From: Candidatus Poribacteria bacterium
GTDB taxonomy: Bacteria; Poribacteria; WGA-4E; WGA-3G
Direction of reading: 5' to 3'
Assembly (NCBI GenBank): GCA_965205015.1
Contig: OZ242029.1
Location: 4,320,001-4,384,000 of the forward strand
DNA length: 64,000 nt
Shown here one piece after another: positions 58,118 to 64,000 of the stretch (within the stretch, counting starts at the first letter, position 1; every line of letters starts with the position of its first letter). Below the pieces are notes generated by a model that was not told the DNA's origin, did not search any database, and saw nothing but the letters and a program-made list of their open reading frames with translations. Position numbers and translations under genes: made by a program.

Positions 58118-59617
58118 ATGGCTCATTTTTTTTCTGAAGCAAGCCGGACTTTCAGTGAGTACTTGCTTTTACCTAACTTAACAACGAAGGATTGTATCCC
58201 GGAAAATGTTGTCCTGAGAACCCCTCTGGTGAAGTTTGAAGTCGGGCAACACCCTTCCCTGGAGGTGAATATTCCGTTGGCTTCTGCCATCATGCAAGCC
58301 GTTTCGGATCACAATTTGGCGATTGCACTGGCGAGACAGGGCGGGATATCCTTTATTTATGGGTCTCAAAGTATTGAAGAGCAGGTAGCAATGGTCCGAG
58401 CCGTTAAAAACCACAAAGCGGGTTTTGTCGTCAGCGACTCAAATTTAAAGTGTGATAACACAATATCAGATGTCGTGAAACTCACCCAAGAAACAGGGCA
58501 CTCGACGATCGCTGTAACCGAAGATGGCTCCCCGTCAGGTGAGCTGCTCGGACTGATAACGGATAAGGACTATCGATTGAGTCGCGTGGATTTAAATACG
58601 AAAGTCAGCGAATTGATGACACCGTTTTCTCAGTTGATCGTTGGTCGAAAGGGAATTACGATTGAAGGTGCCAACGACCTCATTTGGGAACACAAGATAA
58701 ATTGTCTACCGATTGTTGATGAAAATCGTAAACTGGTCCACTTGGTCTTTAGAAAGGATTACGATGACCATAAGAAGAATCCTCTTGAATCCATAGATTC
58801 CCAGAAAAGACTTATCGTCGGTGCCGGTGTGAATACAAGAGATTATAAGGAAAGAGTTCCAGCACTGGTAGAGTCAGGCGTTGATATTATTTGTGTTGAT
58901 TCGTCTGAGGGGTATACAGAATGGCAATCAGACACCATAAAATTCATTAAAAATACGTACGATGGGACTGTGAAAGTGGGCGGCGGGAATGTCGTTCACG
59001 GAGATGCCTTTATGTATCTGGTCGAAGCCGGTGCTGACTTTATAAAAGTGGGTATCGGTGGCGGTGCTATCTGTATAACAAGGGAACAGAAAGGTATTGG
59101 TCGTGGGCAAGCGACTGCCGTCATTGAAGTCGCTCGGCAAAGGGACCTGTATTTGAAGGAAACCGGGGTTTACGTGCCCATTTGCTCAGATGGGGGTATA
59201 TTCCAAGATTATCATATCGGTTTGGCGCTTGCCATGGGTGCTGATTTTGTGATGATGGGCAGATATTTTGCGAGATTTGATGAAAGTCCAAGTAAGATCA
59301 GAAAACTGGGTATGAATACAGTGAAAGAATATTGGGGAGAAGGCACAAAACGAGCCGCCAATTGGCAGCGTTACCACGAGGGCGGCGGTCCAGAATTGTT
59401 GTTCGAGGAGGGTGCTGATGCCTATGTCCCTTATGCAGGAAAGATGAACGATAGTTTGAAAACGACCCTCGCAAAAATCCGATCGCTCATGTGCAATTGT
59501 GGGGCGATATCCCTACCGGAATTCCGTCAAAAAGCGAGATTCGTGTTAGTCTCTTCAGCAAGTATTCGTGAAGGCGGGGTCCACGATATTATCCCAAGAA
59601 CGACGCAGGATGGATAA
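58118..59617 (+). CDS. guaB: IMP dehydrogenase (CBS subdomain)
   Basis: [28 protein letters not shown] catalytic Cys loop, SDGGI, KEYWGEG. Confidence 0.93.
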
Positions 59618-59620
59618 AAA

Positions 59621-61153
59621 ATGAAAACTCTCAACAACGAAATCGCGCTTAATCTTGACGGTGATGCAGAGGTGTCTGTCAAAGGTTTCATCGCGCCGAT
59701 TGAGTCCATGGACCCCAATTTCCATGAAGAATGGGATGCGCTGGCAAATTTGCGCGTTGCTGAACCGGAAAAGGCGTACTTTACTTCGGTTTTCCAAGCG
59801 TTCCTTCCAGATAAGCCTGTCTCCGTTGGGGATTACTGGCAGATTGACGACCAAGGCGCGCTTGCCTTGCTGAGGCAATTTCAACCCAATCCGAATCTGG
59901 ATATGCACATTAACGTCGGAGATTCCCGTGGTTTATGGGCATGCCTACGCGCGTACAACGCTGAATTCGCTGATATTGTGTTCCGCATCCATGCGGAATT
60001 TGCGTTAGAGGACGGTTGGTTCACGCCTTCTCAGTTTGCTGGACATCTGGTTATTGACCGTATGAAGAAGCGTGTCGTGTTTTTCCAGATGCGTGTTCCT
60101 GAAGATACATCGTTTGATGTCAACTGGAGGAAACACAAAGATCACTCTGGTTTTATTACCGGTGGTGGCGTTTGTCCGCACATTGAGCTTCTTACGAAAA
60201 TGCCAGATGTTACTCAGGAAACCGAGTTCACAACATCAATCGCGCGAGAAGAGGCTGAACGCATACTGATACAACGCTTCTATAAATCACAGCAAATTAA
60301 CTGGGTGCCATTTGAAGAGGCATCAGAAATATCACAAGCACAACAGAAACCGATCCATACCATTTCAGTCGATGGACCGCTCGCGGACGAGGCATGCTGA
60401 GGGAGCGGCAAAAACTTGAGGGCAGTTGTCCTCTCCGACGAACGAATCATTGAATTTCTGAACGAAAATTTTATCAATACGTGGGTGCGTAATGCCGAGC
60501 TTAGACGCATGCGTGATTCCCAAGGATTTGAGGAAATGCCTCCCTTGGCACGCACAATCATTACTAACAAATGGCGAAGAGGTCCAGTAGATACGTGGGT
60601 TATATCTCCCGAACTTGAAGCGATAGGACACGTAGCGGTCAATGATTACCTTGACAACAACCGCTGCAAGGATGGGACTTTGGAGAGTGAGAATTACCTC
60701 CTATTTCTCACGAATTCCTTAGAGGCAAAACTCCCCGGATTCGGGAACACTGTTCTCACACCCGAGCAACCCTCCCAACGAATATTGGACGTTGTTCGCA
60801 CCCCAGAATATGGACATCAAGACTACACGGTTGTCGTGATTGACACCACTGCATTTGAAAGAGGCGGTGCACTCATCATCGATATTGAAGTAGGTGGTGA
60901 AAAGGCGTATGGATCATTTCATCTTCTGGATGCCGATCACAAACTTACCTTTGATCCTTATTACAAACGTCCCGAAGGAATCCTTCTTGAGGAATCGCAC
61001 GACACAGGTTGGTTGAGTCCCAATGAAACGGGACAAATGACACATCGTTTTGAGTGTGGACAGATCTTCAAATTGGTCGCTCTGGGCTGGGCATCTAACG
61101 AGAAAGGAAGCATCAACGCTTTTCACGCAAGAATTTCTGTAGAGGAAAAGTAA
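59621..61153 (+). CDS. Selenoprotein N (SELENON)-like protein, copy 1, 510 aa with Sec at TGA 60398-60400
   Basis: ORFs 59621-60400 and 60416-61153 are in frame and separated only by TGA + GSGKN. The junction reads DGPLADEAC-U-GSGKNLRAVVLSDERIIEFLNENFINTW; FRIHAEF and WFTPSQFAGH motifs match SELENON as recalled. Confidence 0.88.
60418..60433 (+). promoter_or_regulatory. Putative bacterial SECIS hairpin, copy 1
   Basis: GAGGGC-AGTT-GTCCTC starting 17 nt after the in-frame TGA. Confidence 0.65.
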
Positions 61154-61154
61154 A

Positions 61155-63152
61155 ATGGAAACTTCACCGAACAAAATCCCTCTCACACTCGGCAGGGATG
61201 CAGCAGTGTCCGTCAAAGGTTTCATCGCACCGATTGAATATACACAGTACAACTTCCACGTGAAATGGGATGAACTGGCGAACTTTCGCGTCGCTGAACC
61301 AGAGAAGCAGTACCCAACATCCATTTTTCAAGCGTTTCTTCCCTCGGAACCGGTTTCGGTCGGTGAATGTTGGGAGATTCAAGAAGAAGGCGCGCTAACG
61401 CTGTTGCGTCAACTTCACCCGAACCCACGACTGGACTTACACTTGGATTCTGGGGATTCTCACGGTTTGTGGGCATGTCTGCGCGCTTACAATAGTGAAT
61501 GTGCTGAAATTCTGTTCCGCATCCACGCCGAATTTGTTATGGAAAATGGTTGCTTTACACCTTCACAATTTGCTGGACGTCTCGTTATTGACCGGGTCCA
61601 CGGAACGATTGTCTCCTTCATGATGCACGTGCCGGCTGCCACACTGAACTTTGATGCAGGCTGGAGGGCCCCGGCGCATCCGGGGGGTGCCGCGGAAATC
61701 GGCTTTTGTCCGAAAATAGAACTCCGTACCGATATTTCAAGTGCTGTGCAGGACACCGAATTCACAGTATCTATTACCGAAGAGGCAGCGAAACGCGCGC
61801 TCATCTTGCGCTTCTATAAGTCACAGCAAATTAACTGGGTATCCTTGGCAGAAGCGTTGGAAATAGCACCCGCACAGCAAAAACCGATTCATGCGATTTC
61901 TGTAGATGGTCCCCTTGTAGATGAAGCCTGCTGAGGGACCGGCAAAGCTTTGAGGACAGGTGTCCTCTCCGACGAACGAATCATCAAATTTCTGAACGAT
62001 AATTTCATCAATACATGGGTTTCCAATTCTGAATTAGGACGCATTCCGAGTTTACGAGCTCCGATCGCCAAAAGACGCGAACGCGAGGGCAAGACCTTTG
62101 ATATGAACCATACTTTGGCACAAGCGATTATAAGAGGGTGGAGCAAATATTCACCGGTGGATTGTATGGTGATCACACATCAATTTGAATTGCTGGGGGG
62201 TATCGACTATAATGTGTTCCTCAGCAACTTGGGAGGTCTGCGCCACACAGAGGCTTACTTACTCTTTCTCAAGGGATCCTTGGACGGAAAACGCCCTGGA
62301 TTGGGAGACGTTATCCTTACTGCTCAACAGCCTTCACAGGAGGTAGTGGACACTTTTCGTATGGTCACGCCTGGGGAGTACACCGTCTTTGCCCTTGATG
62401 CTACAGCGTTTGAAGAGGGTGGCACGCTCAATATTGATATCCAAATCGGTAGAGACACGGCGGACGGTATGTTCTATCTGTTTCACGATGACAGCAAATC
62501 GCCAAAAAGAAAAAAGGTGCTTGATAGGGGAAAAAGCGATGTAGCGGTCTCTGACGCGCTTGCGAAAGTGCTGTGCTTATATGCCGGTGAAACGAAGCAA
62601 ATCAGACACCCTTTTGACCACGGTCAACGTTTTAAATTGTGTGCTATCGGTGATGAGGATGGGTGGTGCGGGGAAGGGGGCGTAAACGCTTTTCATGCAA
62701 AAATTTCTGTAGACGAACATTCCCCGAAGTCTCAGGTTGAATCCTTCACTGCCTCAACCCCTTTGAGCGTTATCCTCGACGGGACACAACCCTCGCAGGA
62801 GATATTGGATATTTTTCGCGCACCGGGAAACGGTTATCAAGATTACACTGTTGTCAATATCGATACAACAGCATTTGAAGACGGTGGCACGCTCAACATT
62901 GATATCCGGGTAGGGAGTGAAGAGGCGGCCGGTTCGTTTGATCTCTTTGATAGTGACACCGAACTCCCGACAGAGGGGATACCTGAAGCGCTCGTCTCGG
63001 CGTGGGTCATTAAATCCGGTAAATCGGGAACAATTAGCCATCGTTTTGAACGAGGTGAAATTTTTAGACTTGGGGCTACTGGAGACTGGTCCAGCGAGAA
63101 AGGGAGGATAAACGCCTTCTCTGCAAAAATTTCCGTGGAAACGGTAGACTAA
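61155..63152 (+). CDS. Selenoprotein N (SELENON)-like protein, copy 2, 665 aa with Sec at TGA 61932-61934
   Basis: ORFs 61155-61934 and 61950-63152 are in frame. The junction reads DGPLVDEAC-U-GTGKALRTGVLSDERIIKFLNDNFINTW; paralogue of copy 1 with the TGA at the same codon (260). Confidence 0.88.
61952..61967 (+). promoter_or_regulatory. Putative bacterial SECIS hairpin, copy 2
   Basis: GAGGAC-AGGT-GTCCTC perfect stem, 17 nt after TGA, G-containing loop. Confidence 0.7.
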
Positions 63153-63856
63153 TCATTGATTACTCTCACTGCGAGGCAATCCGACAATCTCACAAACCGA
63201 TATCCATCCCGTTTAAGTGCCGTGATGATTCGATCTGTCGCTTCGATTGTCCCTAAACGGTTTGCCTGCTTATTCTCTGCTTTTCCATCGTGCAGGACGA
63301 TAATCGAACCGGGGCGTGTCTTTTTCAATACCGTTTTAGTGATACGGTCAGGATTCTGTGTCGTCCAATCCCAACTCCAGACGTTGCAGCTGATGTGCAC
63401 GCGGTTACCCTTCGCAAGTACCCACGCGACAGGTAGGAACCTTGTTAAGACCGGTGCCCGAAATACAATCTCTCCGATAATACGCTGTTGCCGAAGCAGC
63501 ACATCTGTTCGTTCAATCTCCCTTCGGACATAGAATGGCGGCAGAAAACCCAGCAAGGGATGGTTATAGGTGTGATTGCCGATCTGGTGTCCCTCAGCAA
63601 TAACCCGATTTACCGTTTCCGGATGCGTTTCGATCCGATTTCCTATCATGAAAAAGGTGGCTTTGACGTTGTGCTTGGCGAGGACATTAAGTAACCGCTC
63701 GGTGTAAGGCGGATTCGGTCCATCGTCGTAGGTGAGCGCGACAATCCGCTGGTCTGTGTTCAGACGAACGATATTCTTTCCGAACGGCGGTCTAAAGAAC
63801 AACCACAGCAGCATCACCATTACAAATGTTCCAACCACTGGGATGATGGGGTTCAT
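63149..63856 (-). CDS. Polysaccharide deacetylase (NodB/CE4), membrane-anchored
   Basis: ALTYDDGP, KATFF, GNHTYNH, FRAP, DW and IIVLHD motifs. Confidence 0.92.
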   Translation of the reverse strand: MNPIIPVVGTFVMVMLLWLFFRPPFGKNIVRLNTDQRIVALTYDDGPNPPYTERLLNVLAKHNVKATFFMIGNRIETHPETVNRVIAEGHQIGNHTYNHPLLGFLPPFYVRREIERTDVLLRQQRIIGEIVFRAPVLTRFLPVAWVLAKGNRVHISCNVWSWDWTTQNPDRITKTVLKKTRPGSIIVLHDGKAENKQANRLGTIEATDRIITALKRDGYRFVRLSDCLAVRVIND

Positions 63857-63999
63857 TGGGGGCGCGTCCTCATTTTACGTGTGACTGGCAAATGCCACCA
63901 CGGAACGTATGGATACTCGTGGTGTTCCCAATGATACCCAAAGTGATAACAGGTGATAAACGACCAGAATGTTGAATACGCGTTGCTCTGCGCACGGTG
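63853..63999 (-). CDS. crtW: C-terminal fragment of a beta-carotene ketolase CrtW-like desaturase-family protein (cut by the right edge; not in the ORF track)
   Basis: Manual translation HRAQSNAYSTFWSFITCYHFGYHWEHHEYPYVPWWHLP...*; third His box; its stop overlaps the deacetylase ATG (ATGA). Confidence 0.75.
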   Translation of the reverse strand, partial: HRAQSNAYSTFWSFITCYHFGYHWEHHEYPYVPWWHLPVTRKMRTRPQ

Positions 64000-64000
64000 G

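Follow-up and report, generated by a model that had tools for sequence, protein, structure and literature searches.

Two tandem genes in a 64,000-nt stretch of DNA from Candidatus Poribacteria bacterium (contig OZ242029.1, positions 4,320,001 to 4,384,000; hereafter, the window) belong, as judged from protein comparisons, to the family of the selenoprotein SELENON, and each is interrupted by one in-frame TGA that is followed at the same distance by a short hairpin. We propose that each hairpin functions as a bacterial selenocysteine insertion sequence (bSECIS), a reading to which we assign a probability of approximately 0.88. The hairpins are read in this way because of their conservation and covariation among related genes, their fit to the bSECIS consensus, the gene family in which they lie and the selenocysteine (Sec) machinery of related genomes; from these data we also infer binding by SelB and actual insertion of Sec. 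The coordinates of both genes, their Sec-UGA codons and the hairpins are summarized in Table 1.

A preliminary description of the window had reported a 6-bp stem with a 4-nt loop placed 17 nt after each TGA, and the letters read exactly as claimed. It had further pointed out that the sole difference between the two stems, G-U versus A-U at the fifth pair, keeps the pairing despite a change of the encoded residues from RAVVL to RTGVL, which is borne out, and had taken this as a sign of selection on RNA structure. The energies of the hairpins alone are –8.9 (gene 1) and –9.5 kcal/mol (gene 2). The two window copies by themselves make no convincing case beyond chance, and it is the comparative data that settle the matter.

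A scan that covered prokaryotes with a single genome for each species yielded 218 relatives, from which 77 loci were kept, all from metagenome-assembled genomes of Candidatus Poribacteria. A regular expression applied to these 77 loci and the window found 157 places, one of which (L017:6705) was spurious, and 143 distinct real copies were aligned, with the T of TGA counted as nt 1. The homologous codon was TGA in every family copy found. The six stem pairs hold in 95.6% of the 858 cells of this alignment, compared with 44–81% for slid partners, and double changes occur in 15 cells distributed over two of the six pairs (pairs 4 and 5, with exchanges among G-C, G-U and A-U). None of 500 column shuffles attained the observed pairing, the number of double-change cells or the covariation score; on a cruder measure, the number of pairs with any double change, the observed count was attained by 64 of the 500. 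The same hairpin was predicted independently by RNAalifold on the Poribacteria alignment.

The 6-bp stem is perfect in 118 of the 143 copies and becomes perfect in 19 more if the 3′ arm is taken 2 nt further on, while the other six form five of the six pairs. The 19 shifted copies are mostly Glu-encoding, and in them the 3′ arm slips by 2 nt along a CTCTC run. As a general structure, this +2 register was rejected: it pairs in 81.5% of cells without any covariation, and only the Glu and Pro variants adopt it. The stem variants include GAGGGC/GTCCTC, GAGGAC/GTCCTC, GAGGAC/GTTCTC, GAGAAC/GTTCTC and GAGAGC/GCTCTC. In a divergent class of paralogues, which encode LRAGPLSS rather than LRAVVLS, a 7-bp hairpin occupies the same place (nt 21–27 with nt 32–38, loop GGTC) and is perfect in 15 of 17 copies.

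Synonymous variation is almost absent from +19 to +36 but present elsewhere (157 rows, including the spurious one). Leu+19 is encoded by TTG or CTG in 150 of 151 Poribacteria rows, Arg+22 by AGG (130) or AGA (26) and never by CGN, Ala+25 by GCA (141/142), Gly+28 by GGT (100/100), Val+31 by GTC (90/102) and Leu+34 by CTC (150/156). The codon entropy is accordingly 0.0–1.0 bit across the hairpin, compared with mostly 1.3–2.0 bit where these amino acids recur in the rest of the 180-nt span. The hairpin is thus kept among homologous genes throughout the 143 distinct copies, and the suggested selection on RNA structure is backed by both the covariation and the frozen synonymous sites.

We then compared the hairpin with the bSECISearch consensus (Zhang and Gladyshev 2005). 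In the version given in passages of PMC13188914, this model has a loop of 3–9 nt, an upper stem of 4–16 bp, a G in the first two loop positions that is mostly followed by G or U, a distance of 16–37 nt from UGA to loop, and a minimum free energy (MFE) of –7.5 kcal/mol or lower. The hairpins had been described as resembling bacterial SECIS elements, and they agree with all four parts of the model as given there. A 4-nt loop caps a 6-bp stem that is perfect in 137 of the 143 copies in one of the two registers. The loops read AGGT (90), AGTT (48), ACGT (4) and CGTT (1), with GGTC in the divergent class, and the second position is G, followed by G or U, in 138 of the 143. A 17-nt spacer and a 6-nt arm place the loop 23 nt from the UGA in both window copies. 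The 118 perfect hairpins range from –6.6 to –11.6 kcal/mol (mean –8.9), and the MFE of the 48-nt segment is –7.5 kcal/mol or lower in 142 of the 143 copies.

The genes selA, selB and selD and tRNA-Sec were found in all five related chromosome-level Poribacteria genomes examined, each over its curated cut-off. In these genomes (L137–L141), tRNA-Sec lies 40–180 nt from selB, and selD itself contains one in-frame TGA (..TVKCAG-U-ASKLAPGE..) in 5/5; the MFE folds of selD differ among the five and allow no firm comparison of hairpin geometry.

If the hairpin acts as a bSECIS, decoding may proceed as follows. With the UGA held in the A site, the first dozen or so downstream nucleotides would lie inside the mRNA channel, and the 6-bp hairpin, which starts 18 nt after the UGA, would be free to fold just outside the ribosome. 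SelB carrying GTP and Sec-tRNA(Sec) would bind the small apical loop (A-G-G/U-U), and the tRNA thus tethered to the ribosome would allow the UGA to be read as selenocysteine and not as a stop. The predicted products are full-length redox proteins of the SELENON family with a Cys-Sec pair.

The family assignment was based on a profile of nine Poribacteria proteins, the product of gene 1 included, which was searched against 1.84 billion representatives (E ≤ 0.001) and matched 803 representative clusters at 50% identity. Since the profile matches the cnidarian SELENON of Sanderia and Nematostella (E = 4.6e-31 and 2.4e-33, respectively), and the Sanderia protein in turn matches vertebrate proteins named 'Selenoprotein N' at approximately 1e-97, the window genes are, on the strength of these matches, bacterial members of the SELENON family. 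The Poribacteria motif ..DEAC-U-GSGK.LR compares with ..DDQSC-U-GSGRTLR in eukaryotes. Among the 74 inspected top matches that cover the pre-Sec domain, most end in ..D(D/E)(E/Q)SC, at the Sec codon, and a few Cys forms (SCCGSGK) occur in other metagenome proteins. In public protein sets, genes of this family are split or truncated at the TGA or are given Gly or Trp there (P0003, P0006, P0009 and P0277; ACGGSGK, SCWGSGR), probably by way of genetic codes 25 or 4, and most of the other calls stop at this codon.

Pfam and NCBIfam scans of both window proteins gave nothing useful; the animal architecture of an N-terminal membrane anchor and an EF-hand was not recovered, as no Pfam domain was found in the window proteins, and a weak EF-hand was seen in the cnidarian protein P0264 only. 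A sequence search of the PDB gave no match at E up to 1, so that the existence of a solved bacterial SelN structure found no support there, and a search of the ESM Atlas found only a Poribacteria 'hypothetical protein' cluster. No printed description of bacterial SELENON homologues was found within the literature collection and terms searched, and SELENON does not appear among the bacterial selenoprotein families in the review passages covered by that search. Some bacterial members have other domains: P0200 and P0130 (loci L117 and L118, frames of 581 and 588 aa) carry a fused extracytoplasmic function (ECF) sigma-factor domain (Sigma70_r2/r4), and P0225 contains leucine-rich repeats.

In a FastTree tree of 94 pre-Sec domains, the eight eukaryotes form one clade (support 100), which groups with metagenome proteins of the ..LWGALDDQSC type. 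Some of the metagenome rows carry ECF sigma-factor domains and are, by this domain content, bacterial. The Poribacteria lie elsewhere, across branches with support of at least 95, and are not the bacterial group nearest the animals, which argues against a recent transfer from sponge to symbiont. One Poribacteria genome has a DDQSC-type protein; a search of 400 genomes related to it found matches in 130, and the inspected loci were all of the Poribacteria type, with the same hairpin.

SELENON is the gene in which the Sec redefinition element (SRE), the first redefinition element ever defined, was recognized. The SRE of animal SELENON (SEPN1) was reportedly characterized by Howard et al. in 2005 and 2007 and by Maiti et al. 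in 2009; its structure was here derived afresh from eukaryotic metagenome sequences and not from those original papers. An alignment of eukaryotic SELENON was used to scan metagenome contigs, and 21 loci with ..DDQSC-TGA-GS(G/A)RTLR.. were obtained, corresponding to 19 distinct rows. All 17 of the sequences that were folded form a long hairpin from 6 nt after the UGA (MFE –24 to –39 kcal/mol). Fourteen pairs, nt 10–23 with nt 35–48, hold in 92.1% of the cells of the 19 rows, and six of the 14 show double changes, including complete swaps of GGG/CCC to CCC/GGG that alter the protein; none of 500 shuffles attained the observed pairing. This 14-bp stem is clearly the SRE. According to passages of PMC8704476, the SRE hairpin lies next to the UGA, and its stem, loop and spacer are all important; passages of PMC3541580 place the disease mutations G463V, R466Q and R469W/Q inside it, with Sec as residue 462.

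Among 10 eukaryotic contigs scanned, one contained a SECIS in the 3′ untranslated region (UTR) (RF00031, over the Rfam threshold). In two eukaryotic genomic contigs (L096, at about 2872, and L099, at about 3577), the reading frame breaks off one codon past the Sec TGA, following C-U-G. We read this break as an intron, in which case the SRE and the UGA would be brought together only by splicing of the mRNA. L083 (1608), which has identical upstream residues, reads on as expected for a spliced form.

Bacterial and animal proteins align without gaps between Sec and the F-x-x-x-W motif, which allows the two hairpins to be placed on the same codons. The helix midpoints are at nt 29.0 for the SRE, 28.5 for the bacterial hairpin and 29.5 for the hairpin of the divergent class. 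The preliminary description had placed the bacterial hairpin at about the position of the SELENON SRE, and on the 19 eukaryotic sequences this proved correct to within 0.5 nt (28.5 versus 29.0). A common structure in the two domains, on the other hand, is contradicted by the pairing data. The columns of the SRE are paired in 28.1% of 2007 cells in Poribacteria, which 448 of 500 shuffles equal and which is below most slid controls. Conversely, the bacterial pairs form in 59.6% of the cells in eukaryotes, compared with 66.7% and 67.5% for versions slid by +1 and +2; there, only 2 of 19 rows form the outer-but-one pair 22:35 and only 1 of 19 the innermost pair 26:31, whereas the central pairs 23:34, 24:33 and 25:32 can form in 16–19 of the 19. 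The registers also differ (i + j = 57, or 59 in the divergent class, versus 58 for the SRE), and the purine-rich arm is the 5′ arm in bacteria and the 3′ arm in eukaryotes.

The two hairpins might nevertheless be homologous, that is, a single hairpin on codons Sec+8/+9 that was inherited when the gene crossed between domains and was then lengthened or shortened. This possibility concerns history and hence does not conflict with a present function as bSECIS. In its favour are the gapless alignment, the nearly coincident midpoints and the three central pairs available to both domains. The SRE mutations named above (PMC3541580, in the passages cited) fall on the matching codons, Sec+1 to Sec+7, and for SPS genes this hypothesis has already been published (passages of PMC4561486). 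The Cys codon before the Sec-UGA (60395–60397 and 61929–61931 in the window) is always TGC and not TGT in the Poribacteria (156 of 156 copies) and is likewise TGC in 19 of 19 eukaryotic SELENON rows, a nucleotide-level constraint common to both domains that also fits a shared origin.

However, neither helix is kept in the other domain, register and arm polarity differ, and the conserved Arg (xGx) and Leu (CUx) codons largely account for the central G-C pairs that both have. The co-location is, moreover, not improbable by chance, given the loop range of 16–37 nt in the bacterial model and the expectation that any hairpin of approximately 39 nt starting at +6 would have its apex near +26. Since the Poribacteria stand apart from the animals in the tree, the bacterial hairpins sampled here are also not those most relevant to the animal gene. 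Of the suggested homology or interconversion, the co-location therefore stood and the shared structure did not, and we consider homology unlikely. The corresponding scenario, in which the animal SRE descends from the bSECIS of the same gene and the hairpin on Sec+8/+9 has been in place since before the move between domains, is equally doubtful. Under it, the hairpin would have lost its partner SelB after the move and would have been lengthened and kept as an anti-termination element independent of SECIS, which may have let a gene with UGA survive until a 3′-UTR SECIS took over. As co-location comes without shared structure, a link between bSECIS and SRE should not yet be claimed.

Several observations weigh against the bSECIS reading of the Poribacteria hairpin. 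All aligned copies, orthologues and paralogues alike, come from a single phylum, and the cells of the alignment are hence not independent events. Folds of single sequences over 43–63 nt after each UGA give z-scores of +0.09 to +1.10 relative to dinucleotide shuffles, and the MFE of gene 1 is another fold, at –10.6 kcal/mol. In the folding check proposed earlier, stability is thus no better than that of shuffled sequences; hairpin 2 is both the MFE and the centroid of its 43-nt fold. Across the 143 copies, the 48-nt MFE contains the hairpin core in only 49, with 12 more in the +2 register, because of a competing longer fold that is often at least as stable as the hairpin. The evidence for Sec machinery comes from relatives only, the nearest of which shares 89% protein identity with gene 1; a tRNA search of the window found none. 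An Rfam scan of window positions 59000–64000 returned no matching family, with two hits at chance level only. In the same interval, the Rfam models of the eukaryotic SECIS (kink-turn, 3′ UTR) gave no match up to E = 10, while RF00031, as a positive control, scored 40.6 bits in the eukaryotic contig L086.

The competing fold could itself be the functional SECIS. It begins right after the UGA (nt 4–8 with nt 34–38 and nt 10–14 with nt 29–33), encloses a large loop, and is the MFE of gene 1 mentioned above; its pairs hold in 84.6% of the cells of the 143 copies, compared with 46–67% for slid controls. Yet it is essentially devoid of covariation: shuffles are paired to 84.3%, double changes are confined to three cells, and its covariation score is attained by 31 of 500 shuffles. 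Its 14-nt loop exceeds the 3–9 nt of the consensus model as restated in PMC13188914, its 5′ arm would probably be inside the ribosome while the UGA is decoded, the frozen loop codons GCA and GGT/GTT are left unexplained, and RNAalifold did not predict it. We therefore regard this fold as a highly improbable SECIS, well behind the homology considered above in its chances, and retain the short hairpin as the candidate bSECIS. Least credible of all is an absence of recoding, in which the UGA is a true stop, the downstream half is translated by re-initiation at TTG/CTG (nt 19–21) behind a Shine-Dalgarno-like GGGAG (nt 4–8), and the conservation marks a translational-coupling signal. In its favour, GGGAG does lie 10 nt before a TTG that the listing of open reading frames (ORFs) takes as a start, Gly+4 uses GGG in 122 of 149 copies and Ser+7 invariably uses AGY. 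Against it, no family copy has its downstream frame out of phase with the UGA, the residues between UGA and TTG (GSGK-) are conserved as protein and homologous to animal GSGRT and to the uninterrupted bacterial Cys forms (SCCGSGK), TTG gives way to CTG, a poor start codon, in 68 of 151 copies, re-initiation would leave the compensatory changes in the stem beyond this start unexplained, and the full Sec machinery of related genomes counts against a plain stop.

Table 1. Genes, Sec-UGA codons and candidate bSECIS hairpins, in positions of the window
Feature	Position	Strand	Description
Gene 1, SELENON-family selenoprotein (predicted)	59621..61153	+	510 residues, Sec = residue 260, motif DEAC-U-GSGK; frame with TGA = U open from ATG to TAA
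Sec-UGA of gene 1	60398..60400	+	In frame
Candidate bSECIS hairpin 1	60418..60433	+	GAGGGC (60418–60423), loop AGTT (60424–60427), GTCCTC (60428–60433); 17 nt after TGA
Gene 2, tandem paralogue of gene 1	61155..63152	+	665 residues, Sec = residue 260; translation with TGA = U
Sec-UGA of gene 2	61932..61934	+	In frame
Candidate bSECIS hairpin 2	61952..61967	+	GAGGAC (61952–61957), loop AGGT (61958–61961), GTCCTC (61962–61967); 17 nt after TGA

The two window proteins are 59% identical in alignment and, with TGA read as U, share the motif ..VDGPL.DEAC-U-G(S/T)GK.LR..VLSDERII.FLN.NFINTW. A C-terminal domain of approximately 130 residues (..QPSQE..DYTV..ID..AFE.GG.L.ID...NAF.AKISV..) is present once in gene 1 and twice in tandem in gene 2 (62330–63152). 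In both proteins (starts at 59621 and 61155), the conserved domain begins with the first residues, without a hydrophobic leader, unlike many paralogues (P0003, P0019 and others), which have a signal-peptide-like N-terminus. Upstream lies an ORF of 499 residues (58118–59617), the stop of which is 4 nt before the start of gene 1. Gene 1 (59621–61140) is covered across its UGA by contigs from four metatranscriptome runs of one study, which is a weak hint of expression; only 8% of sampled words were present in these runs, and the cover comes from a relative that is 90–95% similar. Gene 2 is uncovered there save for short paralogous pieces, and the runs are uninformative on its expression.

Compared with known systems, the hairpin itself is an ordinary bSECIS, if the reading proposed here is correct, and the interest lies in its host family and in the question of a bSECIS–SRE relation, which can now be tested. 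The prototype of the bSECIS is that of E. coli fdhF. Like bacterial SECIS elements, the Poribacteria hairpin is a stem-loop in the coding region just 3′ of a Sec-UGA, with a small loop that has an early G followed by G or U, and a SelB-type factor is encoded in related genomes. Unlike the typical element, it is short (6–7 bp), no lower stem was found in it, and its 3′ arm can slip by 2 nt. Recognition of the SECIS restores a very large family of bacterial selenoproteins related to a human muscle-disease gene.

With the animal SELENON SRE, the hairpin shares a place after the UGA in the coding region of a homologous gene, overlapping the same codons and centred within 0.5–1 nt. The SRE has at least 14 bp, starts 6 nt after the UGA and reaches –24 to –39 kcal/mol, compared with 6–7 bp from 17 nt and approximately –9 kcal/mol in Poribacteria, and it works beside a 3′-UTR SECIS and without SelB. 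In passages of PMC4561486, both SRE and bSECIS are said to disfavour termination at UGA, and bSECIS elements are proposed as the source of SRE and HRE stem-loops, for SPS genes at least (Mariotti et al. 2015). The idea of a descent from bSECIS to SRE is thus not new, having been published there for SPS; what is new is the gene, SELENON. The pair formed by the SelD bSECIS and the SPS SRE/HRE is likewise a case in which Sec forms of one family occur in either domain, each with a post-UGA hairpin, as those passages describe it, although SPS is a different gene family and the pair-level comparison made here for SELENON shows no shared pairs. SELENON can hence be set beside SPS, since both domains contain Sec forms of it with a post-UGA hairpin, and the link between the bacterial and eukaryotic Sec systems becomes testable in this gene. 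Should the descent prove true, SELENON would be the second case for the hypothesis of Mariotti et al. 2015 and the most directly testable one.

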